From Antedon mediterranea (taxonomy: Eukaryota; Animalia; Echinodermata): a DNA stretch of 64,000 bases. Both the position numbers and the translations under genes were made by a program. Positions within the stretch are counted from its first letter, which is position 1. Each line of letters begins with the position of its first letter. The notes beneath the pieces are model-generated. The model was given only the letters and a program-made list of their open reading frames with translations, was not told the origin of the DNA and searched no databases. The stretch covers positions 18,675,237 to 18,739,236 of the forward strand of contig NC_092672.1 of NCBI RefSeq assembly GCF_964355755.1, written 5' to 3'. Positions 12,591 to 64,000 of the stretch are shown here, piece by piece.

Positions 12591-12600
12591 ATATAGTCTA

Positions 12601-17305: not shown

Positions 17306-17800
17306 ATGAAACTAAATCTCTGTTTTGTATTTCTGAATTGCATAGTTTAATAAAATATGTAATATCTAATAGATAGTTATCTCAATATGATGATGGAACA
17401 CGACCAAGTCAAGACCTGTCTTAACAATATGTAGTTTTTTTGGTACCAGTACTAGTATCTGATTCCTGGTAATAAATTGCAGTTTATGCCCTTTGACATG
17501 TTATATAGTTTGATTTAAGTTTATATCATCTTTCTGCCTGCATCAGATAAGCATTAATAGAACTGATTATAACTAAATTAGATTAAAAACCATTACTCAT
17601 TTGTTTATTTAATGTATTTTTTTAGTTGTAAATACATTTTTGTTTTAACATTGATTTTTAATTCTGTTTGGCAAAAGAAAATATTGTTATTATTTTAAAT
17701 ACATTGAATACAATTGTGCATTATTTAAGCATTTACTCTTGTTGATATTTCATAACACTGTTATGCAGATATCTGTTTTATGTAAATACACCATAGCAAC

Positions 17801-25110: not shown

Positions 25111-25272
25111 ACAAATAATGAATGTTTTGTATTCGTGTAATGGTACAAATAATGGCACTTGGTGAATGATGAAAGGTTATATCAACTCGGCTTTGCCTCG
25201 TTGATATAACCTTTCATCATTCACCTCGTGCCATTATTTGTACCATTGCACTCATAAACATTCATTATTTGT
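25111..25272. repeat. ~160-bp near-perfect palindrome (hairpin-type interspersed repeat)
   Basis: acaaataatgaatg...ggtgaatgatgaaaggttatatcaac-loop-gttgatataacctttcatcattcacc...cattcattatttgt. Confidence 0.85.
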
Positions 25273-25309
25273 ATACTATGGAATCGACACCTGTACGCTA
25301 CAAAATATG

Positions 25310-25720: not shown

Positions 25721-25958
25721 GTTTCACATTCTTCATTATTATCTAAACAAAAACTATTGACGATTTAATTACATATTTTGCGTCGGATAATTTGTAGAAC
25801 TAAGCTGTACTAACGATTACTGAGAGTTTTGCTGGTAATCTAATATGATTCATGTTCCAGGCGATTATTGTAGAGTACTTTGAGGCAATAAGTATAAACA
25901 GCAGATGAGAAGATGATAAAGCATAATTCTACAAAATTTTAGTATAGAAATTGAAGCA

Positions 25959-27362
25959 TTATCTCATTGTATTAGATCTACTTGTGGCAGCATATATGTA
26001 ATGATTACTTTGTATTTCTAAATACATGGCATCAACCTCTTTATCATCTGGTGCCTGAGCAGCAAATGATCTTCTCCAGATTGTGGCATCTCTTGTGCGA
26101 GGTAAAGGTAACGTCATTCTATCGCGAGGTTCAAAGTACACTTCAGGTTGATGTACTATTGTTTTAGTTTGATTTGTTGTGATGTTTTTTGAACATAAAC
26201 AATAATAATAAACTGGAATCATAACGATGATTACTAATAAGACTACACAAGCAACAATGATAATGACGATGACGTCAGTAGATAATCCTGAAGATGTTTC
26301 TTTATTTAATGTGTCAATTCCACGTGATTTATTATTTTCATTATCGTCAATAATTACAGAATCTTTAGCTAATGAAACTGTAACATCGTTTTGTGTATCA
26401 GATTGTATCGTTAACGTAACACTTGTTGATGAACTTCCAATTCGATTTTCAGCTGTGCACGTGATCACAGTTCCATCCTGTTTCATTGTAGGATTATACA
26501 ACATTAATATGTGTCCAGTATTATCAATGTTGTATTCTTTGTTGTCGAGTGGGGGAAGAGTTAACCACGTATAACGAGTAACTGCAGGATTAGCGGTAGT
26601 GTCACAAATAAAGAAAGCTTGCTTACCGGCAGATATCAAACCTGTTTGAGGAATGCTAACTCTTGGCTTGTAATATATTGTCAGTGGTTGCGTTGTACAA
26701 TTTCTACTAAGATCAGGAATTTGTACATTTGTCATTGAACACACAGCTTTATTTCCATTTAAATCAGGATTAGCAATTAATCTCTTTTGTAATCTTGCAG
26801 TTTCTCCATCAATTATTTCAACAACATGTGTAGCGCCATCATTCCATCGTAATGTAACTGGCGGTTCTGTATACTCAGAAGCGCAGAAAAGCATGACGTC
26901 ATCACCTTCTGTGTAAACATCCTTAGATGACGTACATAATGGATATTTCTCATGAGGAATTTGCAATACATTTAAAAATGCTTTATCTGATTCTAGTAAA
27001 AGACTATTATTTCCAAATACGTCACACTGATAAAATCCCCGATCGCTATTCAAAACGCTATAGAAAAAAATATTGTAAATTATCCGCTTAGGAGGCCTAT
27101 TATTATCTTCATTTATTGTGACAATAAAGTTGTGTTGTATTTTCAAATCCTCTCGTACAATGTCATCAGTGGCAATGTATTCTCCATCTTTCTTCCATTT
27201 AAGTTTGTACTGGCTTGTAAAGGTTGTATCAAATTCTACAATGCAAATTAACGAAGCTGCTCTTTTTGCTCTTACTGTTGAATTTGATGGATGTCCGTCA
27301 AATAGAAGACTATTCGTCAAATTCACAAAAAGGACAATAGTAGTACACAATATTGATAACAT
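25959..27362 (-). CDS. IgSF receptor A1 (SP-V-Ig-Ig-TM-tail), intronless CDS; V type a
   Basis: Signal peptide; V-set C..W..DRGFYQC; two more Cys-paired Ig domains; TM DVIVIIIVACVVLLVIIVMIPVYYY; 467 aa. Confidence 0.92.
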   Translation of the reverse strand: MLSILCTTIVLFVNLTNSLLFDGHPSNSTVRAKRAASLICIVEFDTTFTSQYKLKWKKDGEYIATDDIVREDLKIQHNFIVTINEDNNRPPKRIIYNIFFYSVLNSDRGFYQCDVFGNNSLLLESDKAFLNVLQIPHEKYPLCTSSKDVYTEGDDVMLFCASEYTEPPVTLRWNDGATHVVEIIDGETARLQKRLIANPDLNGNKAVCSMTNVQIPDLSRNCTTQPLTIYYKPRVSIPQTGLISAGKQAFFICDTTANPAVTRYTWLTLPPLDNKEYNIDNTGHILMLYNPTMKQDGTVITCTAENRIGSSSTSVTLTIQSDTQNDVTVSLAKDSVIIDDNENNKSRGIDTLNKETSSGLSTDVIVIIIVACVVLLVIIVMIPVYYYCLCSKNITTNQTKTIVHQPEVYFEPRDRMTLPLPRTRDATIWRRSFAAQAPDDKEVDAMYLEIQSNHYIYAATSRSNTMR

Positions 27363-27628
27363 TTTGATTAATAAACTCGATTTTTTAAGTTACATTCTTC
27401 CAGATAAATTATTATTTACTACATTTCGAAAAAATATATTGTTCTCCAAAAGGAAAATTACTTTTTCAATAATGCAGATATTTAACGTTAATACATCAGT
27501 GGTATATGTCCAAACAAATTGATGGTTATGTTTCGCGTTTAAAGGAAACCTACAAAAACAAATTGTATAAGCCGAATTAAGCATTTATGTTTCATAATAT
27601 ATGAGATTGAAATGTATGCGAGAAAATG

Positions 27629-29023
27629 TTATCGCATTGTATTAGATCTACTTGTGGCAGCATATATATAATGATTACTTTGTATTTCTAAATACATGGC
27701 ATCAACCTCTTTATCATCTGGTGCCTGAGCAGCAAACGATCTTCTCCAGATTGTGGCATCTCTTGTGCGAGGTAAAGGTAACGTCATTCTATCGCGAGGT
27801 TCAAAGTACACTTCAGGTTGATGTACTATTGTTGTAGTTTGATTTGTTGTGATGTTTCTTGAACATAAACAATAATAATAAACTGGAATCATAACGATGA
27901 TTACTAATAAAACTACACAGGCAACAATGATAATGACGATGACGTCAGTAGATAATCCCGAAGATATTTCTTTACTTGCAGTTTTATTACCAAGTGATTT
28001 ATTATTTTCATTATAACCAATAATTACAGAATCTTTAGCTGTTGAAACTGTAACATCTTTTTGTGTATCAGATTGTATCGATAACGTAACACTTGTTGAT
28101 GAACTTCCAATTCGATTTTCAGCTGTGCACGTGATTACAGTTCCATCCTGTTTCATTGTGGGATTATACAACATTAATATGTGTCCAGTATTATCAATGT
28201 TGTATTCAGTTTTGTTGAGTGGTGGAAGAGTTAACCATGTATAAATAGTAACTGCAGGATTAGCGGTAGTGTCACAAATGAAGAAAGCTTGCTTACCAGC
28301 AGATATCAAACCTGTTTGAGGAATGCTAACTCTTGGTTTGTAATATATTGTTAGTGGTTGCGTTGTGCAATTTCTATTAAGATCAGGAATGTGTTCATTT
28401 GTCATTGAACACACAGCTTTATATCTATTTAAATCAGGATTAGCAATTAACCTTTTTTGTAATCTTGCGGTTTCTCCATCAACTATTTCAACAACATGTG
28501 TAGCGCCATCATTCCATCGTAATGTTACTGGCGGTTCTGTATACTCAGAAACGCAGAAAAGCATGACGTCATCACCTTCTGTGTAAACATCCTTAGATGC
28601 TGTACATAATGGATATTCATCGCCAGGAATTTGTATTACATCAAAAAATGCTTTATTTGACTCAAGTACAAGAGTGTTATTTTCAAATACGTCACATTGA
28701 TAAAATCCACGATCGCTATTCCAAACACTATTGAACATAAGATTATACGTAATAGTCCCGGTGTTTCTACTCACATCAACAACAAAATGATTTGAATTTT
28801 CCAAATCTTCTCTTATTTTATCTTCAGTGGCAATATATCCATTGTCATTTTTCTTCCATCTTATCTTGTATTGGTATTCAAGACTAAGTTGTGTTTTTAA
28901 AATACAAATTAACGAGCTAGTTTCTTTTACGTTAGATGTAGAGTTTCTGGGATGGTAATCGAAAGACAAACAGCGTGCAAGTTGAAACAATACTACTTCA
29001 AACAATACTACAACAATCTTCAT
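27629..29023 (-). CDS. IgSF receptor A2; V type b
   Basis: Same architecture, 464 aa. Confidence 0.92.
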   Translation of the reverse strand: MKIVVVLFEVVLFQLARCLSFDYHPRNSTSNVKETSSLICILKTQLSLEYQYKIRWKKNDNGYIATEDKIREDLENSNHFVVDVSRNTGTITYNLMFNSVWNSDRGFYQCDVFENNTLVLESNKAFFDVIQIPGDEYPLCTASKDVYTEGDDVMLFCVSEYTEPPVTLRWNDGATHVVEIVDGETARLQKRLIANPDLNRYKAVCSMTNEHIPDLNRNCTTQPLTIYYKPRVSIPQTGLISAGKQAFFICDTTANPAVTIYTWLTLPPLNKTEYNIDNTGHILMLYNPTMKQDGTVITCTAENRIGSSSTSVTLSIQSDTQKDVTVSTAKDSVIIGYNENNKSLGNKTASKEISSGLSTDVIVIIIVACVVLLVIIVMIPVYYYCLCSRNITTNQTTTIVHQPEVYFEPRDRMTLPLPRTRDATIWRRSFAAQAPDDKEVDAMYLEIQSNHYIYAATSRSNTMR

Positions 29024-29491
29024 TGTTTATGTTATTACCGTATTAGAAATGATGTTTTACACTGTGATGTCTCAAAACAATCTCTGATAATATTCCTAAA
29101 ATGAACAGCAAACGACTGCGAATTTATAATTTTAGAGAGACATGTCCAGACAAATATATGATTTTGGTACTCGTTTTGAAGAAACTTATAAAATTAAAAA
29201 AAGTAAGAATATACATCAGTGTCACCTTTCATTAATCTTACTTATGTAAAAGTATGATAGACTTGCAAAATGATTTACGAGAGTTTTTACTTCAATGATT
29301 GCTGGAATATGTTACGTTATTGAATTAGGCATAACTCTTCGTAAATGATAGGAAAATATAAAAGGATATTATTTCTCATTATAATATTATCTACTTCTAT
29401 AGGTAGTACCATATTAATTTATACATCAACATTGTGAAAGTTAAGGTTGTACTCACTGAAAAAGGTAATATATTATATTGAATGAGCATTA

Positions 29492-30883
29492 TCATCTCAT
29501 TGTATTAGATCTACTTGTGGCAGCATAAATGTAATGATTACTTTGTATTTCTAAGTACATGGCATCAACCTCTTTATCGTCTGGTGCCTGAGCAGCAAAC
29601 GATCTTCTCCAGATTGTGGCATCTCTTGTGCGAGGTAAAGGTAACGTCATTCTATCGCGAGGTTCAAAGTACACTTCAGGTTGATGTACTATTGTTGTAG
29701 TTTGATTTGTTGTGATGTTTTTTGAACATAAACAATAATAATAAACTGGAATCATAACGATGATTACTAATAAGACTACACAGGCAACAATGATAATGAC
29801 GATGACGTCAGTAGATAATCCTGGAGATATTTCTTTACTTGCAGTTTTATTACTAAGTGATTTATTATTTTCATTATAATCAATAATTACAGAATCTTTA
29901 GCTGTTGAAACTGTGACATCGTTTTGTGTATCAGATTGTATCGTTAACGTAACACTTGTTGATGAACTTCCAATTCGATTTTCAGCTGTGCACGTGATTA
30001 CAGTTCCATCAAGTTTCATTGTTGGATTAGACAACATAAATATGTGTCCAGTATTATCAATGTTGTATTCAGTTTTGTCGAGTGGTGGAAGAGTTAACCA
30101 TGTATAAATGGTAACTGTAGGATTAGCGGTAGTGTCACAAATAAAGAAACCTTGCTTACCAGCAGATATCAAACCTGTTTGAGGAATGCTAACTCTTGGT
30201 TTGTAATATATTGTCAGTGGTTGCGTTGTACAATTTCTATTAAGATCAGGAATGTGTTCATTTGTCATTGAACACACAGATTTATATCCATTTAAATCAG
30301 GATTAGCAATTAATCTCTTTTGTAATCTTGCACTTTCTCCATCAACTATTTCAACAACATGTGTAGCGCCATCATTCCATCGTAACGTTACCGGAGGTTC
30401 TGTATACTCAGAAACGCAGAAAAGCATGACGTCATCACCTTCTGTGTAAACGTCTTTAGATTCTGTACATAATGGATATTTATCATCAGGAATTTGTATT
30501 ACCTCTAAAAATGCTTTATTTGACTCCAGTACAAGACTGCTATTTTCAAATACATCACACTGATAAAATTCACGATCACTATTCCAAATACTTATGAATA
30601 TCAGATCAAATTTAATTCTGTTATTGATTCTGTTAATAGTCACTACAAAATGGCGTTTATCGTCAATGTCTTCTCGTAAATTTCTGTTTGTAGCTATGTA
30701 TTCCTTGTTTTTCTTCCATTTCAAATCATAATTGCTTTTATCAGAACCTTTAAGTTCAATAATACAAACAAGCGAAACTGTCTCTTTTACATTAGCCGTG
30801 ATGTTAAAAGGATGTTCATAAAACTGTAGACTATTAACTACATTAAAGAAGTAGCTGAAAATAATAATAAAAATTCGTTTCAT
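29492..30883 (-). CDS. IgSF receptor A3; V type c (start taken at MKRIF)
   Basis: Same architecture; ATG at 30883 directly precedes the signal peptide. Confidence 0.92.
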   Translation of the reverse strand: MKRIFIIIFSYFFNVVNSLQFYEHPFNITANVKETVSLVCIIELKGSDKSNYDLKWKKNKEYIATNRNLREDIDDKRHFVVTINRINNRIKFDLIFISIWNSDREFYQCDVFENSSLVLESNKAFLEVIQIPDDKYPLCTESKDVYTEGDDVMLFCVSEYTEPPVTLRWNDGATHVVEIVDGESARLQKRLIANPDLNGYKSVCSMTNEHIPDLNRNCTTQPLTIYYKPRVSIPQTGLISAGKQGFFICDTTANPTVTIYTWLTLPPLDKTEYNIDNTGHIFMLSNPTMKLDGTVITCTAENRIGSSSTSVTLTIQSDTQNDVTVSTAKDSVIIDYNENNKSLSNKTASKEISPGLSTDVIVIIIVACVVLLVIIVMIPVYYYCLCSKNITTNQTTTIVHQPEVYFEPRDRMTLPLPRTRDATIWRRSFAAQAPDDKEVDAMYLEIQSNHYIYAATSRSNTMR

Positions 30884-31167
30884 TCTGGCTGAACTGGCAA
30901 TTTGAAATGTTAAAAATCTTCTTGAATAAACACCTTCCAGCACATAACGTATTAAAGACAAACGCTTCTTTAATGACTACCTTCAATGAAAAAAATATTC
31001 AACAAGCTATACGTACTTGACTCCATTACACAGCTTTCCAAAATGTCCTATAAAATTCAATTTTATGTTTCGCGTTTTGACAAAACCGTTTATTTCAGAA
31101 TTCAAAGATCATTAGAAAGTGTTATTTGTTTAAGAATATTAAAATATCACAATTCCTCTTGAACGTT

Positions 31168-32538
31168 CTATCTCATTGTGTTAGATCTACTGGTGGCAGC
31201 ATAAATGTAGTGATTACTTTGTATTTCCAAGTACATTGCATCAACCTCTTTATCATCTGGTGCTTGAGCAGCAAATGATCTTCTCCAGATTGTGGCATCT
31301 CTTGTGCGAGGTAAAGGTAACGTCATTCTATCGCGAGGTTCAAAGTACACTTCAGGTTGATGTACTATTGTTGTAGTTTGATTTGTTGTGATGTTTCTTG
31401 AACATAAACAATAATAATAAACTGGAATCATAACGATGATTACTAATAAAACTACACAAGCAACAATGATAATGACGATGACGTCAGTAGATAATCCTGA
31501 CGACGTTTCTTTATTTACAGTGTTATTCCCACGTGATTTATTGTTTGTATTATAATCAATAATTACAGAATCTTGAGCTGATGTAACTGTATCAGATTGT
31601 ATCGTTAACGTAACACTCTTTGATGAAGTTCCAATTCGATTTTCAGCTGTGCACGTGATTACAGTTCCATCCTGTTTCATTGTAGGATTATACAACATAA
31701 ATATATGTCCAGTATTATCAATGTTGTATTCAGTTTTGTCGAGTGGTGGAAGAGTTAACCATGTATAAATAGTAACTGCAGGATTAGCGGTAGTGTCACA
31801 AATAAAGAAAGCTTGCTTACCGGCAGATATCAAACCTGTTTGAGGAATGCTAACTCTTGGTTTGTAATATATTGTCAGTGGTTGCGTTGTGCAATTTCTA
31901 TTAAGATCAGAAATTTGTACATTTGTCATTGAACATACATCTTTATATCCATTTAAATCAGGATTAGCAATTAATCTCTTTTGTAATCTTGCAGTTTCTC
32001 CATCAACTATTTCAACAACATGTGTAGCGCCATCATTCCATCGTAATGTTACTGGCGGTTCTGTATACTCAGAAACGCAGAAAAGCATGACGTCATCACC
32101 TTCTGTGTAAACATCATTCGATGCTGTACATAATGGATATTTATCATCAGGAATTTGTATTACATCCAAAAATGCTTTATTTGACTCAAGTACAACGACG
32201 TTACTTTCAAATATGTCGCATTGGTAAATTCCACGATCACTGTTCCATACACTAATGAACACAAGGTTGAAAGTTATTTCCAAAATGCTTCTACTTACAG
32301 TGACAATAAAATGACTGGTATCTACTAGGTCATCTCGAATGTCCCCATTAGTGGCTATATATTCTTCGTCTTTCTTCCATTTTATATCATATTGTCTTTT
32401 ATTGTTTGTCTCATATTCAGCAATACAAGTTAGCGAAACTGTTCCCATTGCTTCAATTGTTACATTCAATGGTTGTTTATCAAATACAAGAGAATTTGAA
32501 GAACGAAGCAAAACTGTAATTATCATTAACAATAGCAT
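31168..32538 (-). CDS. IgSF receptor A4; V type d
   Basis: Same architecture, 456 aa, shortened stalk. Confidence 0.92.
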   Translation of the reverse strand: MLLLMIITVLLRSSNSLVFDKQPLNVTIEAMGTVSLTCIAEYETNNKRQYDIKWKKDEEYIATNGDIRDDLVDTSHFIVTVSRSILEITFNLVFISVWNSDRGIYQCDIFESNVVVLESNKAFLDVIQIPDDKYPLCTASNDVYTEGDDVMLFCVSEYTEPPVTLRWNDGATHVVEIVDGETARLQKRLIANPDLNGYKDVCSMTNVQISDLNRNCTTQPLTIYYKPRVSIPQTGLISAGKQAFFICDTTANPAVTIYTWLTLPPLDKTEYNIDNTGHIFMLYNPTMKQDGTVITCTAENRIGTSSKSVTLTIQSDTVTSAQDSVIIDYNTNNKSRGNNTVNKETSSGLSTDVIVIIIVACVVLLVIIVMIPVYYYCLCSRNITTNQTTTIVHQPEVYFEPRDRMTLPLPRTRDATIWRRSFAAQAPDDKEVDAMYLEIQSNHYIYAATSRSNTMR

Positions 32539-32799
32539 CTTGACTACCTTAGTCTATACAATCAATGTAAACTATTATATAATGAATGCATTATTACAGG
32601 TGTAATATATTGCAATATAGTATAGCCATCGAAGTAGACATTTTCTTGCCGGGTTTGAAAACACATTGGCACAGCAATTACAATAGCTCTATGTTATGCT
32701 AGATTAATGTCCATTTAAAATAAAAATTGTGTTTAACGTTTTACAAAAATGGTATTTATCAAAAGAAATAGCATACCAATTTAAATTCATAATAACGTA

Positions 32800-34194
32800 T
32801 TATCTCATTGTATTAGATCTACTTGTGGCAGCATATATGTAATGATTACTCTGTATTTCTAAATACATGGCATCAACCTCTCTATCGTCTGGTGCCTGAG
32901 CAGCAAACGATCTTCTCCAGATTGTGGCATCTCTTGTGCGAGGTAAAGGTAACGTCATTCTGTCGCGAGGTTCAAAGTACACTTCAGGTTGATGTACTAT
33001 TGTTTTTGTTTGATTTCTTGTGATGTTTCTTGAACATAAACAATAATAATAAACTGGAATCATAACGATGATTACTAATGAAACTACACAAGCAACAATG
33101 ATAATGACGATGACGTCAGTAGATAATCCTGTAGATGTTTCTTTATTTACAGTGTTATTTCCACGTGATTTATTATTTCCATTATAATCAATAATTACAG
33201 AATCTTGAGCTGATGTAACTGTAACATCATTTTGTGTATCAGATTGTATCGTTAACGTAACACTCGTTGATGAACTTCCAATTTGATTTTCAGCTGTGCA
33301 CGTGATTACAATTCCATCATGTTTCATTGTGGGATTATACAACATTAATATGTGTCCAGTATTATCAATGTTGTATTCTTTGTTGTCGAATGGTGGAAGA
33401 GTTAACCATGTATAACGAGTAACTGCAGGATTAGCGGTAGTGTCACAAATGAAGAAAGCTTGCTTACCAGCGGATATCAAACCTGTTTGAGGAGGAATGC
33501 TAACTCTTGGTTTGTAATATATTGTCAGTGGTTGCGTTGTACAATTTCTATTAAGATCAGGAATGTGTTCATTTGTCATTGAACACACAGCTTTATATCC
33601 ATTTAAATCAGGATTAGCAATTAACCTCTTTTGTAATCTTGCAGTTTCTCCATCAACTATTTCAACAACATGTGTAGCGCCATCATTCCAACGTAACGTT
33701 ACTGGAGGTTCTGTATACTCAGAAGCGCAGAAAAGCATGACGTCATCACCTTCTGTGTAAACATCCTTAGATGCAGTACATAATGGGTATTTATCTCCCG
33801 GAATTTGTATTACATCAAGAAATGCTTTATTTGACTCCAGTACAAGTATATCCTTTTCAACAACATCACATTGATAAAATGCTCGATCACTGTTCCTTAT
33901 CCTTATAAAGACAAGATTAAAATTAATACGGACATCGGTCTTGCTATAGGTTACAACAAAATGGCTTGTATCTCTAATGTCCTCTCGTATGTTGCCATTT
34001 GTAGCAATATATTTTTCGTTTTTCTTCCACTTCATCTCATATTCATGTATGCCCAATGAGTGTAGTTCTACGCTGCAAATCAACGAAACTGTTCCCTCTG
34101 CTTTGACAGTAAAGTTGGATGGATGGTCATAGAACTGCAGACTATTTATTAGATAAAATAGATAGCTAAATATAGTGATAGCAAATAATTTCAT
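32800..34194 (-). CDS. IgSF receptor A5; V type e
   Basis: Same architecture, 464 aa. Confidence 0.92.
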   Translation of the reverse strand: MKLFAITIFSYLFYLINSLQFYDHPSNFTVKAEGTVSLICSVELHSLGIHEYEMKWKKNEKYIATNGNIREDIRDTSHFVVTYSKTDVRINFNLVFIRIRNSDRAFYQCDVVEKDILVLESNKAFLDVIQIPGDKYPLCTASKDVYTEGDDVMLFCASEYTEPPVTLRWNDGATHVVEIVDGETARLQKRLIANPDLNGYKAVCSMTNEHIPDLNRNCTTQPLTIYYKPRVSIPPQTGLISAGKQAFFICDTTANPAVTRYTWLTLPPFDNKEYNIDNTGHILMLYNPTMKHDGIVITCTAENQIGSSSTSVTLTIQSDTQNDVTVTSAQDSVIIDYNGNNKSRGNNTVNKETSTGLSTDVIVIIIVACVVSLVIIVMIPVYYYCLCSRNITRNQTKTIVHQPEVYFEPRDRMTLPLPRTRDATIWRRSFAAQAPDDREVDAMYLEIQSNHYIYAATSRSNTMR

Positions 34195-34428
34195 CTTTAA
34201 TAAAACTGGTCAACTTGATCGTGATATTCGTCTTCAATAATCATATCTCAGGAAGTAATACTGTTTAAGAAAATGTCCAACTACCTACATCATTTTTAGC
34301 TGATAGAGAAATCATATTATTGACAAAACACATCTACAGTATTCTATCTGTCCTATACAATTAAAAACTGTGTTTCCCGTTTCTTTAAAACACTAATTTC
34401 AATAGAATTCCACAATTGCAATACCAAT

Positions 34429-35823
34429 CTATCTCATTGTATTAGATCTACTTGTGGCAGCATATATGTAGTGATTGCTTTGTATTTCCAAGTACATTGC
34501 ATCAACCTCTTTATCATCTGGTGCCTGAGCAGCAAATGATCTTCTCCAGATTGTGGCATCTCTTGTGCGAGGTAAAGGTAACGTCATTCTATCGCGAGGT
34601 TCAAAGTACACTTCAGGTTGATGTACTATTGTTGTAGTTTGATTTGTTGTGATGTTTCTTGAACATAAACAATAATAATAAACTGGAATCATAACGATGA
34701 TTACTAATAAAACTACACAAGCAACAATGATAATGACGATGACGTCAGTAGATAATCCTGACGACGTTTCTTTACTTATAGTGTTATTCCCACGTGATTT
34801 ATTGTTTTTATTATAATCAATAATTACAGTATTTTGAACTGATTTAACTGTGACATCGTTTTGTGTATCAGATTGTATCGTTAACGTAAAACTTGTTGAT
34901 GAACTTCCAATTTGATTTTCAGCTGTGCACGTGATTACAGTTCCATCCTGTTTCATTGTGGGATTATATAACATTAATATATGTCCAGTATTATCAATGT
35001 TGTATTCAATATTGTCGAGTGGTGGAAGAGTTAACCATGTATAACGAGTAACTGCAGGATTAGCGGTAGTGTCACAAATAAAGAAAGCTTGCTTACCGGC
35101 AGATATCAAACCTGTTTGAGGAGGAATGCTAACTCTTGGTTTGTAATATATTGTCAGTGGTTGCGTTGTACAATTTCTATTAAGATCAGGAATGTGTTCA
35201 TTTGTCATTGAACACATAGCTTTATATCCATTTAAATCAGGATTAGCAATTAACCTCTTTTGTAATCTTGCAGTTTCTCCATGAACTATTTCAACAACAT
35301 GTGTAGCGCCATCATTCCATCGTAATGTTACTGGTGGTTCTGTATACTCAGAAGCGCAGAAAAGCATGACGTCATCACCTTCTGTGTAAACATCCTGAGA
35401 TGCTGTACATAATGGGTATTTACCTCCAGGAATTTGTATTACATCAAAAAATGCTTTATTTGACTCCAGTACAAGAGTATTTTTTCCAAATACGTCACAT
35501 TGATACAATCCACGATCACTATTCCAAATACTTATGAACATAAGAATAAATTTAATTTGGTTATTTATTCTCCGCATAGTCACTACAAAATGACTCTTAT
35601 CGTTAATATCTTCTCGTACATGTCCGTCTGTAGCTATGTATTCCTCATTTTTCTTCCATTTCAACTCATAATTTCCTTTATCAAAATCTTTTAATTTTAA
35701 AATACAATCAAGCGAAGCTGTTTCTTTTACATTAACAGTGTTGTTAAATGGATGTTTATCAAACCGCAGACTACAAATGAGACAGAATAAATAACAAAAT
35801 ACAGTAATAGAAAATAGTTTCAT
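34429..35823 (-). CDS. IgSF receptor A6; V type c-like
   Basis: Same architecture, 464 aa. Confidence 0.92.
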   Translation of the reverse strand: MKLFSITVFCYLFCLICSLRFDKHPFNNTVNVKETASLDCILKLKDFDKGNYELKWKKNEEYIATDGHVREDINDKSHFVVTMRRINNQIKFILMFISIWNSDRGLYQCDVFGKNTLVLESNKAFFDVIQIPGGKYPLCTASQDVYTEGDDVMLFCASEYTEPPVTLRWNDGATHVVEIVHGETARLQKRLIANPDLNGYKAMCSMTNEHIPDLNRNCTTQPLTIYYKPRVSIPPQTGLISAGKQAFFICDTTANPAVTRYTWLTLPPLDNIEYNIDNTGHILMLYNPTMKQDGTVITCTAENQIGSSSTSFTLTIQSDTQNDVTVKSVQNTVIIDYNKNNKSRGNNTISKETSSGLSTDVIVIIIVACVVLLVIIVMIPVYYYCLCSRNITTNQTTTIVHQPEVYFEPRDRMTLPLPRTRDATIWRRSFAAQAPDDKEVDAMYLEIQSNHYIYAATSRSNTMR

Positions 35824-36088
35824 CTTGGCTGAATTTGAAATACCTTTTTAAATAAACATTTTGAAGCACATAAAGGCAACTAGTTCCTTAGCAATTACCT
35901 TCCTCATTGTCACATAATAAAGCAAGAACATTTACTTATCGACGCTACTTTACACAGCTATTCCTAATGTCCTACTTAATACGATATTATGTTTAGCGTT
36001 TTGCTAAAACAAGTTTATTTCAGAATACACACACCAAATAAAAAAAACACTATTGACAACCATTTTAAGCTAATACCATAAAAACGTT

Positions 36089-37480
36089 CTATCTCATTGT
36101 ATTACATCTACTTGTGGCAGCATAGATGTAATGATTACTTTGTATTTCCAAGTACATGGCATCAACCTCTTTATCATCTGGTGCTTGAGCAGCAAATGAT
36201 CTTCTCCAGATTGTGGCATCTCTTGTGCGAGGTAAAGGTAACGTCATTCTATCGCGAGGTTCAAAGTACACTTCAGGTTGATGTACTATTGTTGTAGTTT
36301 GATTTGTTGTGATGTTTTTTGAACATAAACAATAATAATAAACTGGAATCATAACGATGATTACTAATAAAACTACACAAGCAACAATGATAATGACGAT
36401 GACGTCAGTAGATAATCCTGTAGATGTTTCTTTATTGACAGTGTTATTTCCACGTGATTGATTATTTTCATTATAATTAATAATTACAGAATCTTGAGCT
36501 GATGTAACTCTAACATCTTTTTGTGTATCAGATTGTATCGATAACGTAACACTCGTTGATGAACTTCCAATTCGATTTTCAGCTGTGCACGTGACCACAG
36601 TTCCATCCTGTTTCATTGTGGGATTAGACAACATAAATATGTGTCCAGTATTATCAATGTTGTATTCAGTTTTGTCGAGTGGGGGAAGAGTTAACCATGT
36701 GTAACGAGTAACTGCCGGATTAGCGGTAGTCTCACAAATAAAGAAACCTTGCTTACCAGCAGATATCAAACCTGTTTGACGAATGCTAACTCTTGGTTTG
36801 TAATATATTGTCAGTGGTTGCGTTGTACAATTTCTATTAAGATCAGGAATGTGTTCATTTGTCATTGAACACACAGATTTATATCCATTTAAATCAGGAT
36901 CAGCAATTAATCTCTTTTGTAATCTTGCACTTTCTCCATCAACTATTTCAACAACATGTGTAGCGCCATCATTCCATCGTAACGTTACCGGAGGTTCTGT
37001 ATACTCAGAAACGCAGAAAAGCATTACGTCATCACCTTCTGTGTAAACGTCTTTAGATTCTGTACATAATGGATATTTATCATCAGGAATTTGTATTACA
37101 TCTAAAAATGCTTTATTTGACTCTAGTACAAGACTGCTATTTTCAAATACATCACATTGGTAAAATCCCCGATCGCTATTCAAAACCCCATAGAAAAAAA
37201 TATTGTAAATAATTTGCATATTATCTTCATTTATTGTGACAATAAAGTTTTGCGATGTTTTCAAATCCTCTCGTAAAACGTCGTTAATGGCAATGTATTC
37301 TCCATCTTTCTTCCATTTAAGTTTGTACTGGCTTGTAATCGTTGTATCAAATTCTACAATGCAAATTAACAAAACTGCTCCTTTAGCTTTTACAGTTGAA
37401 TTTGATGGTTGTTTATCAAACACAAGACAATTCGTAATGTTAAAAAACAGAAAAATATAACTAAGCACTGTTAATAGCAT
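36089..37480 (-). CDS. IgSF receptor A7; V type a-like
   Basis: Same architecture, 463 aa. Confidence 0.92.
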   Translation of the reverse strand: MLLTVLSYIFLFFNITNCLVFDKQPSNSTVKAKGAVLLICIVEFDTTITSQYKLKWKKDGEYIAINDVLREDLKTSQNFIVTINEDNMQIIYNIFFYGVLNSDRGFYQCDVFENSSLVLESNKAFLDVIQIPDDKYPLCTESKDVYTEGDDVMLFCVSEYTEPPVTLRWNDGATHVVEIVDGESARLQKRLIADPDLNGYKSVCSMTNEHIPDLNRNCTTQPLTIYYKPRVSIRQTGLISAGKQGFFICETTANPAVTRYTWLTLPPLDKTEYNIDNTGHIFMLSNPTMKQDGTVVTCTAENRIGSSSTSVTLSIQSDTQKDVRVTSAQDSVIINYNENNQSRGNNTVNKETSTGLSTDVIVIIIVACVVLLVIIVMIPVYYYCLCSKNITTNQTTTIVHQPEVYFEPRDRMTLPLPRTRDATIWRRSFAAQAPDDKEVDAMYLEIQSNHYIYAATSRCNTMR

Positions 37481-37758
37481 CTTGATTAATATTCTTGATT
37501 TTTAAGATGGCTACAGTTCTCTAGATCAATAGTTACTTACTGTACTTCGAAAGTAGTAGTAGTAGTTTTCGCAAAGCAACGTTACAATGGAAACGACAAT
37601 GAATATAGTTATTATATTCTTTATCAATGGGCAATGTCCAAATGAATTGGTGGTTGTGTTTCACGTTCTCAAAAAACGTTACATAAACAGATTATATCAC
37701 CAGAAATAAGTATTGCTGTTGACACATTATATGAGATAGAAATGTATGCGGGAAAGTG

Positions 37759-39153
37759 TTACCGCATTGTATTACATCTACTTGTGGCAGCATATATGTA
37801 ATGATTACTTTGTATTTCCAAGTACATGGCATCGACCTCTTTATCATCTGGTGCCTGAGCAGCAAACGATCTTCTCCAGATTGTGGCATCTCTTGTGCGA
37901 GGTAACGGTAACGTCATTCTATCGCGAGGTTCAAAATACACTTCAGGTTGACGTACTATTGTTGTAGTTTGATTTGTTGTGATGTTTCTTGAACATAAAC
38001 AATAATAATAAACTGGAATCATAACGATGATTACTAATAAAACTACACAAGCAACAATGATAATGACGATGACGTCAGTAGATAATCCTGTAGATGTTTC
38101 TTTATTGACAGTGTTATTTCCACGTGATTGATTATTTTCATTATAATCAATAATTACAGAATCTTTAGCTGTTGAAACTGTGACATCATTTTGTGTATCA
38201 GATTGTATCGTTAACGTAACACTTGTTGATGAACTTCCAATTTGATTTTCAGCTGTGCACGTGATTACAGTTCCATCCTGTTTCATTGTGGGATTATACA
38301 ACATTAATATGTGTCCAGTATTATCAATGTTGTATTCAGTTTTGTCGAGTGGTGGAAGAGTTAACCATGTATAAATAGTAACTGCAGGGTTAGCGGTAGT
38401 GTCACAAATGAAGAAAGCTTGCTTACCGGCAGATATCAAACCTGTTTGAGGAATGCTAACTCTTGGTTTGTAATATATTGTCAGTGGTTGCGTTGTACAA
38501 TTTCTATTAAGATCAGGAATTTGTATATTTGTCATTGAACATACAACTTTATATCCAATTAATTCAGGATTAGCAATTAATCTCTTTTGTAATCTTGCAG
38601 TTTCTCCATCAACTATCTCAACAATATGTGTAGCGCCATCATTCCATCGTAATGTTACTGGCGGTTCTGTATACTCAGAAATACAGAAAAGCATGACGTC
38701 ATCACCTTCTGTGTAAACATCCTGAGATGCTGTACATAATGGGTATTTATCTCCAGGAATTTGTATTACATCAAAAAATGCTTTATTTGACTCCAGTACA
38801 AGAGTATTATTTTCAAATATTTCACATTGATAAAATCCACGATCGCTATTCCAAACACTATTGAACATAAGATTATACGTAATAGTCCCGGTGTTTCTAC
38901 TCACATCGACAAAAAAATGATTTAAATTTTTCAAATCTTCTCTTATTTTATCTTCAGTGGCAATATATCCATTGCCATTTTTCTTCCATCTTATCTTGTA
39001 TTGGTATTCAAGACTAAGTTGTGTTTTTAAAATACAAATTAACGAGCTAGTTTCTTTTACGTTAGATGTAGAGTTTCTAGGATGGTAATCGAAAGACAAA
39101 CAGCGTGCAAGTTGAAACAATACTACTTCAAACAATACTACAACAATCTTCAT
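37759..39153 (-). CDS. IgSF receptor A8; V type b
   Basis: Same architecture, 464 aa. Confidence 0.92.
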   Translation of the reverse strand: MKIVVVLFEVVLFQLARCLSFDYHPRNSTSNVKETSSLICILKTQLSLEYQYKIRWKKNGNGYIATEDKIREDLKNLNHFFVDVSRNTGTITYNLMFNSVWNSDRGFYQCEIFENNTLVLESNKAFFDVIQIPGDKYPLCTASQDVYTEGDDVMLFCISEYTEPPVTLRWNDGATHIVEIVDGETARLQKRLIANPELIGYKVVCSMTNIQIPDLNRNCTTQPLTIYYKPRVSIPQTGLISAGKQAFFICDTTANPAVTIYTWLTLPPLDKTEYNIDNTGHILMLYNPTMKQDGTVITCTAENQIGSSSTSVTLTIQSDTQNDVTVSTAKDSVIIDYNENNQSRGNNTVNKETSTGLSTDVIVIIIVACVVLLVIIVMIPVYYYCLCSRNITTNQTTTIVRQPEVYFEPRDRMTLPLPRTRDATIWRRSFAAQAPDDKEVDAMYLEIQSNHYIYAATSRCNTMR

Positions 39154-39601
39154 TGTTTATGTTATTATCGTATTAGAAATGATGTTTTACACTATGTTGT
39201 CTCGAAACAATCTCTGATAATATTCCTAAAATGAACAGCAAACGACTGCGAATTTATAATTTTAGAAACATGTCCAGACAAATATATGATTTTGGTACTC
39301 GTTTTGAGGAAACTATATAAGTAAGAATCTACATCAGTGTCACCTTTCATTAATCTTACTTATGTAAAAGTATGATAGACTTGCAAAATGATTTAAGAAA
39401 CTTTTTACTTCACTGATTGCTGGAAAATGTTACGTTATTGAATTAGGCATAACTCATCGTAAATGATAGGAAAATATAAAAGGATATTATTTCTCATTAT
39501 AATATTATCTACTTCTATAGGTAGTACCATATTAATTTATACATCAACATTGTGAAAGTTAAGGTTGTACTCTCTGAAAAAGGTAATAGGAAAGAGGCTT
39601 A

Positions 39602-40996
39602 TTAGCTAATTGTATTAGATCTACTTGTGGCAGCATATATGTAATGATTACTCTGTATTTCCAAATACATGGCATCAACCTCTTTATCATCTGGTGCCTG
39701 AGCAGCAAATGATCTTCTCCAGATTGTGGCATCTCTTGTGCGAGGTAAAGGTAACGTCATTCTATCGCGAGGTTCAAAGTACACTTCAGGTTGATGTACT
39801 ATTGTTGTAGTTTGATTTGTTGTGATATTTCTTGAACATAAACAATAATAATAAATTGGAATCATAACGATGATTACTAATAAAACTACACAGGCAACAA
39901 TGATAATGACGATGACGTCAGTAGATAATCCCGAAGATGTTTCTTTATTTAATGTGTCATTTCCACGTGATTTATTATTTTCATTATGATCAATAATTAC
40001 AGAATCTTTAGCTTTTGAAACTGTAACATCGTTTTGTGTATCAAATTGTATCATTAACGTAACACTCGTTGATGAATTTCCAATTCGATTTACAGCTGTG
40101 CACGTGATTACAGTTCCATCATGTTTCATTGTTGGATTAGACAACATAAATATGTGTCCAGTATTATCAATGTTGTATTCAGTTTTTTCGAGTGGTGGAA
40201 GAGTTAACCATGTATAAATAGTAACTGCAGGATTAGCGGTAGTGTCACAAATAAAGAAAGCTTGCTTACCGGCAGATATCAAACTTTTTTGAGGAATGCT
40301 AACTCTTGGTTTGTAATATATTGTCAGTGGTTGCGTTGTACAATTTCTATTAAGATCAGGAATGTGTTCATTTGTCATTGAACACACAGCTTTATATCCA
40401 TTTAAATCAGGATTAGCGATTAACCTTTTTTGTAATCTTGCAGTTTCTCCATGAACTATTTCAACAACATGTGTAGCGCCATCATTCCATCGTAATGTTA
40501 CCGGAGGTTCTGTATACTCAGAAGCGCAGAAAAGCATGACGTCATCACCTTCTGTGTAAACATCCTGAGATGCTGTACATAATGGGTATTTATCTCCAGG
40601 AATTTGTATTACATCAAAAAATGCTTTATTTGACTTCAGTACAAGAATATCATTTTTAAATACGTCACATTGATAAAATCCACGATCGCTATTCCAAATA
40701 CTTATGAATATCAGATTATACGTAATAGTCCCGATGTTTCTACTTACATCAACAAAAAAATGATTTAAATTTTCCAAATCTTCTCTTATTTTATCTTCAG
40801 TGGCAATATATTCATTGTCATTTTTCTTCCATCTTATCTTGTATTGGTATTCAAGACTAGGTTGTGTTTTTAAAATACAAATTAACGAGCTAGTTTCTTT
40901 TACGTTAGATGTAGAGTTTCTTGGGTGGTAATCGAAAGACAAACAGCGTGCAAGTTGAAACAATACTACTTCGAACAATACTACAACAATCTTCAT
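39602..40996 (-). CDS. IgSF receptor A9; V type b with a type-c patch
   Basis: Same architecture, 464 aa; C-terminus NTIS. Confidence 0.92.
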   Translation of the reverse strand: MKIVVVLFEVVLFQLARCLSFDYHPRNSTSNVKETSSLICILKTQPSLEYQYKIRWKKNDNEYIATEDKIREDLENLNHFFVDVSRNIGTITYNLIFISIWNSDRGFYQCDVFKNDILVLKSNKAFFDVIQIPGDKYPLCTASQDVYTEGDDVMLFCASEYTEPPVTLRWNDGATHVVEIVHGETARLQKRLIANPDLNGYKAVCSMTNEHIPDLNRNCTTQPLTIYYKPRVSIPQKSLISAGKQAFFICDTTANPAVTIYTWLTLPPLEKTEYNIDNTGHIFMLSNPTMKHDGTVITCTAVNRIGNSSTSVTLMIQFDTQNDVTVSKAKDSVIIDHNENNKSRGNDTLNKETSSGLSTDVIVIIIVACVVLLVIIVMIPIYYYCLCSRNITTNQTTTIVHQPEVYFEPRDRMTLPLPRTRDATIWRRSFAAQAPDDKEVDAMYLEIQSNHYIYAATSRSNTIS

Positions 40997-41454
40997 TGTT
41001 TATGTTATTATCGTATTAGAAATGATGTTTTACACTATGATGTCTCGAAACAATCTCTGATAATATTCCTAAAATGAACAGCAAACGACTGCGAATTTAT
41101 ATTATTAGAGACATGTCCAGACAAATATATGATTTTGGTACTCGTTTTGAGGAAACTTATAACATTAATTAAAGTAAGAATCTACATCAGTGTCACCTTT
41201 CATTAATCTTACTTATGTAAAAGTATGATAGACTTGCAAAATGATTTAAGAGACTTTTTACTTCACTGATTTCTTGAAAATGTTACGTCATTGAATTAGG
41301 CATAACTCTTCGTAAATGATAGGAAAATATAAAAGGATATTATTTTTCATTATAATATTATCTACTTCTATAGGTAGTACCATATTAATTTATACATCAA
41401 CATTGTGAAAGTTAAGGTTTTACTCTCTGAAAAAGGTAATATGAAAGAGGCTTA

Positions 41455-42831
41455 TTATCTCATTGTATTAGATCTACTTGTGGCAGCATATATGTAATGA
41501 TTACTCTGTATTTCCAAATACATGGCATCAACCTCTTTATCGTCTGGTGCCTGAGCAGCAAATGATCTTCTCCAGATTGTGGCATCTCTTGTGCGAGGTA
41601 AAGGTAACGTCATTCTATCGCGAGGTTCAAAGTACACTTCAGGTTGATGTACTATTGTTGTAGTTTGATTTGTTGTGATGTTTCTTGAACATAAACAATA
41701 ATAATAAACTGGAATCATAACGATGATTACTAATAAAACTACACAAGCAACAATGATAATGACGATGACGTCAGTAGATAATCCTGTAGATGTTTCTTTA
41801 TTTACAGTGTTATTTCCACGTGATTTATTATTTCCATTATAATTAATAATTACAGTATCTTGAGCTGATGTAACTGTATCAGATTGTATCGTTAACGTAA
41901 CATTCTTTGATGAAGTTCCAATTCGATTTTCAGCTGTGCACGTGATTACAGTTCCATCCTGTTTCATTGTGGGATTAGACAACATTAATATGTGTCCAGT
42001 ATTATCAATGTTGTATTCAGTTTTGTCGAGTGGTGGAAGAGTTAACCATGTATAACGAGTAACTGCAGGATTAGCGGTAGTGTCACAAATAAAGAAAGCT
42101 TGCTTACCAGCGGATATCAAACCTGTTTGAGGAATGCAAACTCTTGGCTTGTAATATATTGTCAGTGGTTGCGTTATACAAGTTCTATTAAGATCAGGAA
42201 TGTGTTCATTTGTCATTGAGCATACAGCTTTATATCCATTTAAATCAGGATTAGCAATTAACCTCTTTTGTAATCTTGCAGTTTCTCCATGAACTATTTC
42301 AACAACATGTGTAGCGCCATCATTCCATCGTAATGTTACTGCCGGTTCTGTATACTCAGAAACACAGAAAAGCATGACGTCATCACCTTCTGTGTAAACA
42401 TCCTTAGATGCAGTACATAATGGGTATTTATCTCCAGGAATTTGTATTACATCCAAAAATGCTTTTGTTGACGCCAGTACAATATTTTCAGTTTTGAAAA
42501 CATCACATTGATAAAATCCACGATCAGTATTCCAAACACTTACAAAGACAAGATCGAATTTAATTCGTGTACTACTTCTTCGTATTGTAACAATAAAATG
42601 ACTTGAATCTTTTAGATTATCCACTATATTTCCATTAGTAGCAATATATTCTTCGTCTTTCTTCCACTTCATATCATATTGTATTTCGTCGTTTGTTTTA
42701 TATTCTACAATACATGTAAGTGAAACTGCTCCTTCTGCTTGTACGGTTGAATTTAATGGATGCTCATCAAATAAAAGACAGCTTGTAAAACGAAATAAAA
42801 GAACATTAACAGCAAACACAAACCTTAACAT
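41455..42831 (-). CDS. IgSF receptor A10; V type d-like (start taken at MLRFV)
   Basis: Same architecture; shortened stalk as in A4. Confidence 0.92.
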   Translation of the reverse strand: MLRFVFAVNVLLFRFTSCLLFDEHPLNSTVQAEGAVSLTCIVEYKTNDEIQYDMKWKKDEEYIATNGNIVDNLKDSSHFIVTIRRSSTRIKFDLVFVSVWNTDRGFYQCDVFKTENIVLASTKAFLDVIQIPGDKYPLCTASKDVYTEGDDVMLFCVSEYTEPAVTLRWNDGATHVVEIVHGETARLQKRLIANPDLNGYKAVCSMTNEHIPDLNRTCITQPLTIYYKPRVCIPQTGLISAGKQAFFICDTTANPAVTRYTWLTLPPLDKTEYNIDNTGHILMLSNPTMKQDGTVITCTAENRIGTSSKNVTLTIQSDTVTSAQDTVIINYNGNNKSRGNNTVNKETSTGLSTDVIVIIIVACVVLLVIIVMIPVYYYCLCSRNITTNQTTTIVHQPEVYFEPRDRMTLPLPRTRDATIWRRSFAAQAPDDKEVDAMYLEIQSNHYIYAATSRSNTMR

Positions 42832-43069
42832 TCTTGAATAATTTTGAAAATACGTATTATACATAATTAGTATCATTCCCATATAAACGTATACTTTTGT
42901 AGTATATTGTCGAAACGTTTAAATATTGAGTAAATGTTTAATCATTACCATAGCACACGTATTAATAATTGAACTTGTCAGAAACATGCTCAGCTGAATT
43001 TGTTATTATGTTACGCGTTCTTAATTATAACAAAAAACAGAAACATATTATGCACAGTAACTTACTTAG

Positions 43070-43180
43070 TATATAGCAATGGTTACTCTGTATTTCCAAG
43101 TACATTGCATCAACCTCTTTATCATCTGGTGCTTGAGCAGCAAACGATCGTCTCCAGATTGCGGCATCTCTTGTGCGAGG
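43070..43180 (-). pseudogene. Truncated cytoplasmic-tail relic of an eleventh cluster A gene
   Basis: Near-identical to the tail-coding DNA (PRTRDAAIWRRSFAAQAPDDKEVDAMYLEIQSNH); homology stops abruptly at 43180. Confidence 0.85.
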
Positions 43181-63856: not shown

Positions 63857-64000
63857 TTAATCTTGAAGTGTATTTTGATTGTTCTTATCTTCAATATACG
63901 TATATCCTTGTACATCAAGATCTTCAGGAACTTGAGAAGCAAATGAATGTCTCCAGTGACCATAATGTCCAGTACTTGGTAATCGAGGTAAAGATCGATC
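63857..64000 (-). CDS. IgSF receptor B4, 3' end only (runs off the window)
   Basis: ...DRSLPRLPSTGHYGHWRHSFASQVPEDLDVQGYTYIEDKNNQNTLQD*. Confidence 0.8.
   Translation of the reverse strand, partial: DRSLPRLPSTGHYGHWRHSFASQVPEDLDVQGYTYIEDKNNQNTLQD

Follow-up and report, generated by a model that had tools for sequence, protein, structure and literature searches.

Clustered protocadherins (Pcdh) and Dscam/sDscam are the known routes by which animals obtain cell-identity repertoires. In the Pcdh alpha, beta and gamma clusters, whose organization is laid out in the available portion of PMC7811963, tandem large exons code for ectodomain, transmembrane (TM) segment and cytoplasmic sequence, a conserved element containing a CGCT box is found at a fixed distance 5' of the ATG, upstream variable exons are spliced over downstream ones to a common 3' exon, and the common cytoplasmic domain is encoded by constant exons. 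Pcdh proteins carry six cadherin ectodomains, stochastic choice and homophilic binding are among their traits, and regional conversion has been described in them, with raised GC3 in fugu Pcdh (PMC1852091, available portion). In sDscam alpha and beta of the Chelicerata, the variable units at the 5' end are Ig-based, stand in tandem, carry promoters and are spliced to constant exons; each cassette encodes Ig1 or Ig1-2 in two or four exons, the remainder, including an FNIII body, comes from the constant exons, and the sequence between cassettes is retained in RNA, according to the accessible part of PMC4835542. The Hydractinia Alr receptors are clustered members of the Ig superfamily with V-set tips and tyrosine motifs; they lie in tandem within one interval, have one exon for each domain, a membrane-proximal Fn3-like fold among them, and come in tens to hundreds of alleles, as far as the accessible part of PMC9546547 describes them. 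Among echinoderm proteins, KirrelL, Kirrel2L, IgTM and Hypp1164 share the layout signal peptide (SP)-V-Ig-Ig-stalk-TM, and KirrelL is marked by expression in skeletogenic cells and a part in cell fusion; kirrelL is an intronless V-Ig-Ig-TM gene, treated in the available portion of PMC8903837 as one well-conserved gene per species, with no array. Our literature search found no description of cell-identity repertoires of the Pcdh or Dscam/sDscam kind in echinoderms, and no publication describing the crinoid locus presented here.

The window, i.e., the whole stretch of DNA analysed, comprises 64,000 nucleotides of Antedon mediterranea, a member of the crinoids, the earliest-branching echinoderm class. 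ORF calling revealed ten head-to-tail, uninterrupted and intact ORFs of 456-475 aa on the minus strand at 25959-42882 (subcluster A), each coding for a signal peptide, three Ig domains of which the first is a V domain, a stalk, a TM helix and a tail. This is the arrangement that an initial annotation had read from the sequence, and the seven BC-loop strings quoted in it were all found in the translations. Its statement that no copy is broken holds for the ten ORFs but not for an eleventh copy, of which a tail-only remnant is left; likewise, 'single-exon' is correct for the coding region, but the sister subcluster B has a spliced 3' UTR exon.

25959..27362, minus strand: A1, 467 aa, the gene at the end of subcluster A
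27629..29023, minus strand: A2, 464 aa, V lineage in common with A8 and A9
29492..30883, minus strand: A3, 463 aa, A6-like V, yet Ig2 99% like A7
31168..32538, minus strand: A4, 456 aa
32800..34194, minus strand: A5, 464 aa
34429..35823, minus strand: A6 (P0001), 464 aa, modelled as V, two more Ig domains and TM
36089..37480, minus strand: A7, 463 aa, A1-like V
37759..39153, minus strand: A8, 464 aa
39602..40996, minus strand: A9, 464 aa
41455..42882, minus strand: A10, 475 aa counted from the first ATG
43079..43180, minus strand: what is left of an eleventh A gene, its tail alone, with 90-95% identity to the A tails

In the database, the A10 protein (P0004) is given from the ATG at 42831 onwards, with 458 aa. 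Two sets of contigs, X6 and X10, were judged RNA-like only from a spliced joint and their size. The region downstream of A1 is covered in RNA-like contigs as one unbroken stretch, and a high-copy repeat at ~24950-25280 fills the junction tables, masking any splice signal for A. In the X10 contigs 28484-29811 is uncovered and X6 contig depth declines from A1 to A10; neither entered the evidence, since genes cannot be ranked by the depth of contigs.

A 38-bp ungapped element lies 150-202 nt 5' of the ATG in all ten A genes, with one occurrence per gene and none elsewhere in the window. Its leave-one-lineage-out scores were 19-33 bits, a level reached by none of about 128,000 other positions, and its between-lineage identity was 0.65, against 0.28-0.37 in the flanks. 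The element is likely a promoter element of each A gene.

27504..27541, minus strand: element 5' of A1, 38 bp, conserved, likely promoter element
29140..29177, minus strand: element 5' of A2, conserved
31041..31078, minus strand: element 5' of A3, conserved
32705..32742, minus strand: element 5' of A4, conserved
34346..34383, minus strand: element 5' of A5, conserved
35965..36002, minus strand: element 5' of A6, conserved
37632..37669, minus strand: element 5' of A7, conserved
39268..39305, minus strand: element 5' of A8, conserved
41111..41148, minus strand: element 5' of A9, conserved
42984..43021, minus strand: element 5' of A10, conserved

Two other identities were considered for it and discarded, namely an RNA structure (z -1.54 to +1.40 in the eight of ten copies folded; no Rfam match in the window) and a splice acceptor (an AG precedes the GGAC block in some copies only).

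Subcluster B spans 57491-64000, the window end, and here tandem variable exons are joined to a common downstream exon, as seen in the X6 and X10 contigs.

55266..55737, minus strand: common non-coding 3' exon of B, acceptor at 55738-55739 behind a pyrimidine tract, lower end at or below 55266
57491..58879, minus strand: B1, 462 aa, GT donor 4 nt past the stop
59687..61075, minus strand: B2, 462 aa, GT donor 4 nt past the stop
61997..63364, minus strand: B3, 455 aa, GT donor 4 nt past the stop, joint from 61993 to 55737
63857..64000, minus strand: B4 tail, cut at the window end, without a GT donor past the stop

The joint 55737/61993, of the GT-AG type with CT..AC ends as read, corresponds to a B3-type exon spliced across B2 and B1 and was absent from the DNA run X1; two further X6 joints link other tail ends to the 55737 acceptor.

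The locus thus resembles clustered Pcdh in its tandem large exons, in a conserved element at a fixed distance 5' of the ATG (10/10 A genes), in variable exons that are spliced past those downstream of them (B), in having several subclusters, one possibly without constant exons, and in the regional homogenization of the 3' parts of paralogues. It differs in that three Ig domains take the place of the cadherin ectodomains, every exon has its own complete tail, the donors of B1-B3 lie behind the stop and the common exon is non-coding, the element lacks the CGCT box, and the A spacers are just 234-468 bp. Stochastic choice and homophilic binding of the Pcdh kind would be putative traits of it. The likeness to protocadherins and sDscam drawn in the initial annotation goes further than could be told from the sequence alone, through the per-gene element in A, the shared-exon splicing in B and the species-specific homogenization. 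As to sDscam, the X6 contigs over A and B spacers suggest that between-unit sequence is retained in crinoid RNA as well, whereas in the crinoid the whole protein lies in one exon; the A proteins gave no cadherin match and have no FNIII. It is to be noted that a protocadherin-like model has against it that no conserved donor was found past the stops of the A genes, that the element was not detected in the three B spacers (best score 1.1 bits), and that B4 lacks a donor.

Divergence is unevenly distributed along the A proteins. Mean pairwise amino acid identity over the 45 A pairs was 31% in the SP, 52% in V strands A-F and 76% in V strands F-G, while in the body it was 92% in Ig2, 91% in Ig3, 76% in the stalk, 99% in the TM and 97% in the tail. 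The reported near-identity of Ig2, Ig3, TM and tail is indeed found (91-99% in amino acids, bodies 94-99% at the DNA level), but the 'near-invariant body' does not extend to the stalk, and the 'sharp switch', although located within one coding exon, is a ramp of about 30-40 codons over strands F-G, along which nucleotide identity rises from 0.70 to 0.94. Domain by domain, SP and V are divergent and the body, apart from the stalk, uniform, as had been noted, but with pS 0.61, pN 0.29 and dN/dS 0.29 the term 'hypervariable' is misleading for V: since silent sites are near saturation and dN/dS is low, the A V domains are old rather than fast-evolving. They make up about six lineages (A2/A8/A9 90-95% alike, A1/A7 78%, A3/A6 70%), and the similarity of the spacers tracks the lineage of the V downstream (0.95-0.97, 0.73 and 0.69, respectively). 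Between lineages, V identity was 32% in loops versus 68% in framework, the variation being located in strand A' and in loops BC, C'-D, DE and FG; strands C, C' and F, which usually form the face for side-by-side binding, were 73-88% conserved. In the BC and DE loops pN was close to pS (0.58 vs 0.63 and 0.63 vs 0.63). By a counting method, without a codon-site model and with power limited by saturation, pN was below pS in the V loops for far and near pairs; dN/dS was below 1 in loops and framework alike, and about 0.5 for recent A pairs. Loop-centred variation fits tip binding or drift equally well. In another sample of the same organism (X6, the one independent sample), V-bearing contigs differed by 0-24 nt in 315-800 nt, i.e., 0-3%, and in a second organism (X5) by 8-35 nt in 481-826 nt. 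The dN/dS below 1 in V and the 0-24 nt differences lend no support to reading the array, in the manner of Alr/NITR, as hypervariable through rapid evolution, selection or allelic variation.

About 33 relatives lie putatively on the same contig as the window and 25 on one Anneissia scaffold. Identity within window A and to Anneissia (45 and 30 pairs) was 0.58 vs 0.57 for V, 0.92 vs 0.76 for Ig2, 0.91 vs 0.61 for Ig3 and 0.98 vs 0.84 for TM-tail. Because the body is alike within the species while V is equally far within and between species, the body is homogenized, with gene conversion as the likely agent. In the trees, Ig2 plus Ig3 of the window A genes formed one clade (98/91). That bodies group by species and V domains do not is formally shown by tree tests for B, where a window-only V clade was rejected (p-AU 5.6e-7; 8 rows vs 9) and the tails formed one clade (100/98), and is suggested for A, where a window-only V clade withstood the test (p-AU 0.07-0.08). 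V lineages persist in two crinoid genera, and A3 combines an A6-type V with an A7-type Ig2. In B and C the divergence runs through Ig2 and Ig3, and TM-tail alone is homogenized. A runs test for conversion tracts gave p<0.05 in 12 and p<0.01 in 4 of the 45 pairs (tracts of 60-135 nt), a weak result since rate differences along the gene yield the same signal. GC3 was 0.20-0.27 in the body and 0.28 in V, without the rise seen in fugu Pcdh.

To judge from its sequence, the array stems from an expansion, in crinoids, of a three-Ig family of echinoderms that resembles KirrelL/Kirrel2L/IgTM. The initial annotation could not match it to a named family; it can be placed beside these three, but appears distinct from kirrelL itself, by eye and by short motifs. 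The opening of Ig2 with (Y/F)PxC and a late extra cysteine, read by eye from KirrelL and Kirrel2L in supplement 7 of PMC8903837 (the part available), recur in the crinoid array proteins, while Anneissia KirrelL appears by the same means to be a separate 623-aa protein; its short motif occurred in 0 of 199 retrieved proteins. A tail search in Atlas gave scores under 0.9 throughout, and a third homologue search, with a limited candidate set that is no proof of low copy number outside crinoids, returned five proteins. The A6 ectodomain model resembles nectin/Necl, DIP, IgLON and SYG folds, with the top TM-scores for nectin-1. Nectin/Necl (CADM), Kirrel/SYG-1 and DIP/IgLON were the best structural and profile matches, but at only 15-22% identity and with another tail; their genes are multi-exon. 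A predicted A6 V homodimer scored 0.14, which gives no answer for or against. Paired immune receptors of the NITR kind have canonical ITIM or ITAM tails, with activating forms as partners. In the crinoid family a canonical ITIM was found at the distal tyrosine in 9/26 aligned family members (juxtamembrane Cys-containing matches dropped) but not in the A, B and C tails, which have non-canonical YxxI only; the ITAM pattern occurred in 1/26 members and in none of these tails.

We lean slightly towards the view that the locus is a crinoid three-Ig receptor cluster laid out like clustered protocadherins, with V domains that likely act as recognition labels feeding one signalling tail. Each large coding exon would have a likely promoter element to itself, and a cell would switch on one or some of these promoters. 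Recombination among the near-identical 3' parts, by gene conversion and unequal crossover, would keep the tail uniform and do the job of the coding constant exons in Pcdh-alpha/gamma, while subcluster B exons are spliced to their one common non-coding 3' exon. To go by Kirrel/SYG-1, nectin/CADM and KirrelL, the V domains would engage partners in trans on other cells, and signalling may run through the distal tyrosine of the tail, as in relatives. Given the conservation of strands C, C' and F in A, specificity probably differs between subclusters and V lineages more than among all ten copies. We infer the cell-recognition role by analogy with these systems; the initially annotated picture of surface receptors diversified in the germline, variable at the tip and constant at the signalling end, is supported. 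A bolder version is possible but doubtful, namely a crinoid promoter-choice cell-identity code that arose apart from those of vertebrates and chelicerates, out of an intronless KirrelL-type Ig gene. Three or more subclusters would together hold dozens of exons, each coding for a whole protein, with own promoters, shared non-coding end exons joined just past the stop, conversion-kept tails and stochastic choice for self-avoidance or selective fusion in a nervous or skeletal system with many arms.

The array might instead diversify expression and not binding: promoter-SP-V units would have escaped conversion once diverged, the loops would drift, and the A proteins would share one partner across tissues and stages. 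Such a history would agree with BC and DE loops in which pN approaches pS, as under relaxed constraint, with the conserved C, C' and F strands, with a cleaved signal peptide that diverges as much as V, and with spacers that go with the downstream V lineage. However, the ectodomain-wide divergence of B and C over a homogenized TM-tail and the common 3' exon of B both fit an ectodomain repertoire on one output, and the V lineages have been kept in two genera; we consider the expression-only history unlikely. A role in innate immunity, with varied ligands from microbes or parasites bound by CDR-like loops at the tip and signalling through an ITIM-like tail, like that of the NITR, VCBP or SIRP families, would account for the concentration of variation in the tip loops and for the distal ITIM of the nine members, but hardly for the YxxI-only tails of A, B and C, the near-absence of ITAM, dN/dS about 0.5 even in recent pairs, ten intact ORFs with one remnant only, or the order and content of array A retained in the second organism (X5 contigs). 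This role, too, is improbable.

A locus for allorecognition of the Hydractinia Alr1/Alr2 kind, where homophilic binding between individuals depends on the allele, is suggested by the V-set tip, the tandem family in one interval and the tyrosine motifs (PMC9546547, accessible part), but the X6 and X5 differences are far below Alr allele diversity, and all domains here lie in one coding exon, without Fn3, which makes it very improbable. There remains the artefact of collapsed or falsely duplicated repeats, which the initial annotation had itself raised. The high DNA identity of the A bodies would be expected from it, and X1 may be the assembly's own sample; nevertheless, all A bodies differ at silent sites, DNA-type contigs of X1 and, independently, X5 bridge tail-spacer-V junctions in unchanged order among the matches listed, and Anneissia carries a separate, parallel array, leaving an artefact with next to no likelihood.

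If the locus is indeed a receptor cluster of the protocadherin layout, it would represent the same genomic grammar written from a third protein family, with a non-coding common exon and a constant part kept by recombination, and would let one test directly whether arrays with promoter choice have evolved more than once in the service of cell recognition; a factor binding the 38-bp element could parallel CTCF at Pcdh promoters. The element, the splicing of B exons to a non-coding 3' exon and the large set of relatives in two crinoids are new, and even the weaker readings leave a large, previously undescribed crinoid receptor family. Database names for this family number a dozen and are inconsistent, and four Anneissia B proteins, different over their whole length, carry the annotation of isoforms X1-X4 (XP_033118812-18).

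Two subclusters of related receptor genes, A and B, and a remnant of one further gene lie in the window:

25959-42882, minus strand: A1-A10, ten ORFs of 456-475 aa, uninterrupted under the standard code
43079-43180: tail-only remnant of an eleventh A gene, recognized by sequence match to the A tails
57491-64000: subcluster B, related to subcluster A, comprising B1-B3 and the tail of B4

The initial annotation had described ten intact ORFs of one layout, and both points were confirmed: all ten are open from end to end, and they align as signal peptide, V (the membrane-distal Ig domain), Ig2, Ig3, stalk, TM and tail, the part from Ig2 onward being called the body here. The spacers between the A genes measure 234-468 bp. 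Only Ig families gave credible Pfam matches in the five array proteins scanned, and in the AlphaFold2 model of A6 (mean pLDDT 74.6 overall; stalk and tail <50) all three Ig domains are well formed; by structure search, its matches were nectin/Necl, DIP, IgLON, LRIG1 and SYG structures, with identities of 15-22%. The remnant, which may be retained as a component of the unit upstream of A10, is followed by a perfect GT donor (about 43060), and is also bridged by a contig of X5, a DNA-type run of a second organism code.

A variable V on a near-constant body had also been proposed, and the domain-wise comparison of the 45 A-gene pairs upheld the contrast, qualified by a dN/dS of only 0.29 in V strands A-F (pS 0.61, pN 0.29); body pS was 0.12 in Ig2, 0.09 in Ig3 and 0.04 in TM. 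Since silent and replacement sites share the same step, the contrast does not come from protein-level selection alone. Comparison with three full A-type relatives from the crinoid Anneissia japonica gave V identities of 0.57 across species and 0.58 among the window A genes; the corresponding values were 0.61 versus 0.91 for Ig3, and 0.84 versus 0.98 for TM-tail. The window A genes form one clade in the Ig2+Ig3 tree (support 98/91), while the best A-type V tree intermixes Antedon and Anneissia, a window-only V clade being still compatible (p-AU 0.07-0.08). In subcluster B, the same test rejected a window-only V clade (p-AU 5.6e-7), and the tails form one clade (support 100/98). It was also found that spacer, signal peptide and V co-vary as one unit among the A genes, and that the A bodies are mosaics of one another. 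As judged from sequence comparison, the 3' part of the genes is under concerted evolution; this is likewise reported for fugu protocadherins in the accessible text of PMC1852091, although the GC3 rise described there is absent from the A-gene bodies. In the last tail codons of the A genes, pS reaches 0.41 with a pN of 0.004, and thus strong purifying selection also acts on the region of the distal tyrosine.

Isoform labels X1-X4 (XP_033118812-18; these labels are not our runs) are attached to four Anneissia B proteins whose sequences differ over their whole length, and in B1, B2 and B3 a GT donor lies 4 nt past the stop. A shared non-coding exon was predicted beforehand, and contigs of runs X1 (DNA-type), X6 and X10 (both judged RNA-like) were then aligned to 55050-64000. 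A joint at 55737|61993, which has CT..AC ends and leaps over 6255 nt that include B2 and B1, was present in X6 and X10, which are two studies, and absent from the X1 contigs aligned to this region. Two further X6 joints link other tail ends to the acceptor at 55737, which is preceded by a long pyrimidine tract; by eye, one of these two tail ends matches how P0019 ends, a B gene that lies outside the window. The donor side of 55737|61993 could instead belong to a B3-like gene farther upstream. At 63857-63870, the tail of B4 reads two residues longer and its stop is not followed by a donor; an X6 contig extends from the B4 tail into B3.

No conserved donor follows the stops of A1-A10, and seven of the ten A spacers are without any AATAAA or ATTAAA. 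X6 contigs span an A tail, the spacer and the V that comes next; in one X10 contig, an A3-like V is joined via the near-identical tail to sequence downstream of A1. All of these observations hint weakly at a common 3' end; a single transcript cannot be demonstrated with contigs. Two acceptor-like sites lie 30 and 81 nt past the A1 stop (25878-25930, minus strand) and a strong donor lies 35 nt past the A3 stop, sites that may serve a shared A end exon.

Each A spacer contains one ungapped 38-bp element, 150-202 nt upstream of the ATG, with the core AACG-NN-WAMCA ... GGACAT. Across the window, the core pattern occurs exactly 10 times, always on the coding strand, and held-out copies scored 19-33 bits with leave-one-lineage-out matrices, every other position scoring lower. 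The element is lacking downstream of A1, and the B spacers yielded no copy of it. A structured-RNA reading was ruled out by RNA folding of 8 of the 10 copies (z from -1.54 to +1.40) and by the lack of an Rfam match in the window. We infer that it is a promoter element; its placing parallels the conserved sequence element of the vertebrate clustered protocadherins, as far as the available part of PMC7811963 describes it. That the element serves in handling the 3' end of the gene upstream is less likely, because it sits anywhere from 47 to 316 nt from that gene's stop.

In the mechanism that we propose, the promoter ahead of one exon would fire and the transcript would continue through the downstream genes; in B, the splice documented by the contigs would then join it, just past the stop, to the shared end exon. 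Junction-dependent decay requires a junction far enough past the stop, and one only 4 nt past it is too near to trigger it. Recombination among the 3' parts would give every product of a subcluster the same tail, and the differing V domains, by analogy with related families, would likely set which cells bind. Among the six V lineages of A, the BC loop has 15% identity with pN near pS, and strands C, C' and F have 73-88% identity. That the array diversifies expression only, and not binding, appears rather unlikely; binding of immune ligands we regard as unlikely, and allorecognition, compared through the Hydractinia Alr features in the accessible text of PMC9546547, as highly improbable. Literature listings and abstract openings, mostly without subscription papers, contained no description of this cluster. 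Compared with the protocadherin clusters, and with chelicerate shortened Dscam as covered by the available portion of PMC4835542, the locus works like both, yet belongs to neither.

In homologue searches, all ten matches to A3 and 29 of 33 to B3 were own-assembly or crinoid proteins. One 1,305,899-bp Anneissia scaffold carries 25 family members in three tail types, and we infer about 33 on the window's own contig (13 whole and one partial in the window, 19 outside). Twenty of the 150 listed profile-search matches were looked up, and these included 16 crinoid three-Ig proteins, one holothurian cluster and two long Ig-repeat proteins, from a hemichordate (P0044) and a brittle star (P0090). The latter two repeat the same Ig2-Ig3 pair, extra cysteines included, pointing to a putative ambulacrarian module. 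Family members have in common an extra cysteine pair in Ig2 and the tail signature YFEP-x-D ... W-x-R ... QV-P ... Y-x-x-I. An R-x-V-G-(I/V)-Q-V stretch, presumably resembling dynein light chain LC8-binding motifs, is conserved in the tails of P0159, P0157, P0148, P0149, P0142 and others, and altered versions occur in the A and B tails and in C, a further tail type outside the window. By eye, over the part ahead of the tail, KirrelL and Kirrel2L, as presented in the accessible part of PMC8903837, have the architecture and Ig2 start of this family, and IgTM and Hypp1164 its architecture.

The cluster is flanked by an ARMC5-like multi-exon gene (6093-17305, plus strand; ARM_ARMC5 and BTB matches in Pfam), a synteny marker for other echinoderms. 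Between it and the 3' end of the cluster is a 4.4-kb minisatellite (17800-22170), strongly strand-skewed, in which a 38-40 bp unit is repeated about 112 times (96% match). The 630-aa low-complexity ORF at 42-1934 (plus strand) has no Pfam match. Downstream of A1, at about 24950-25280, is a small repeat of very high copy with an internal inverted repeat; about 1 kb is missing here from one contig of organism code B. At 48400-50600, in the gap between the subclusters, diverged repeats in direct and inverted orientation form a nest.
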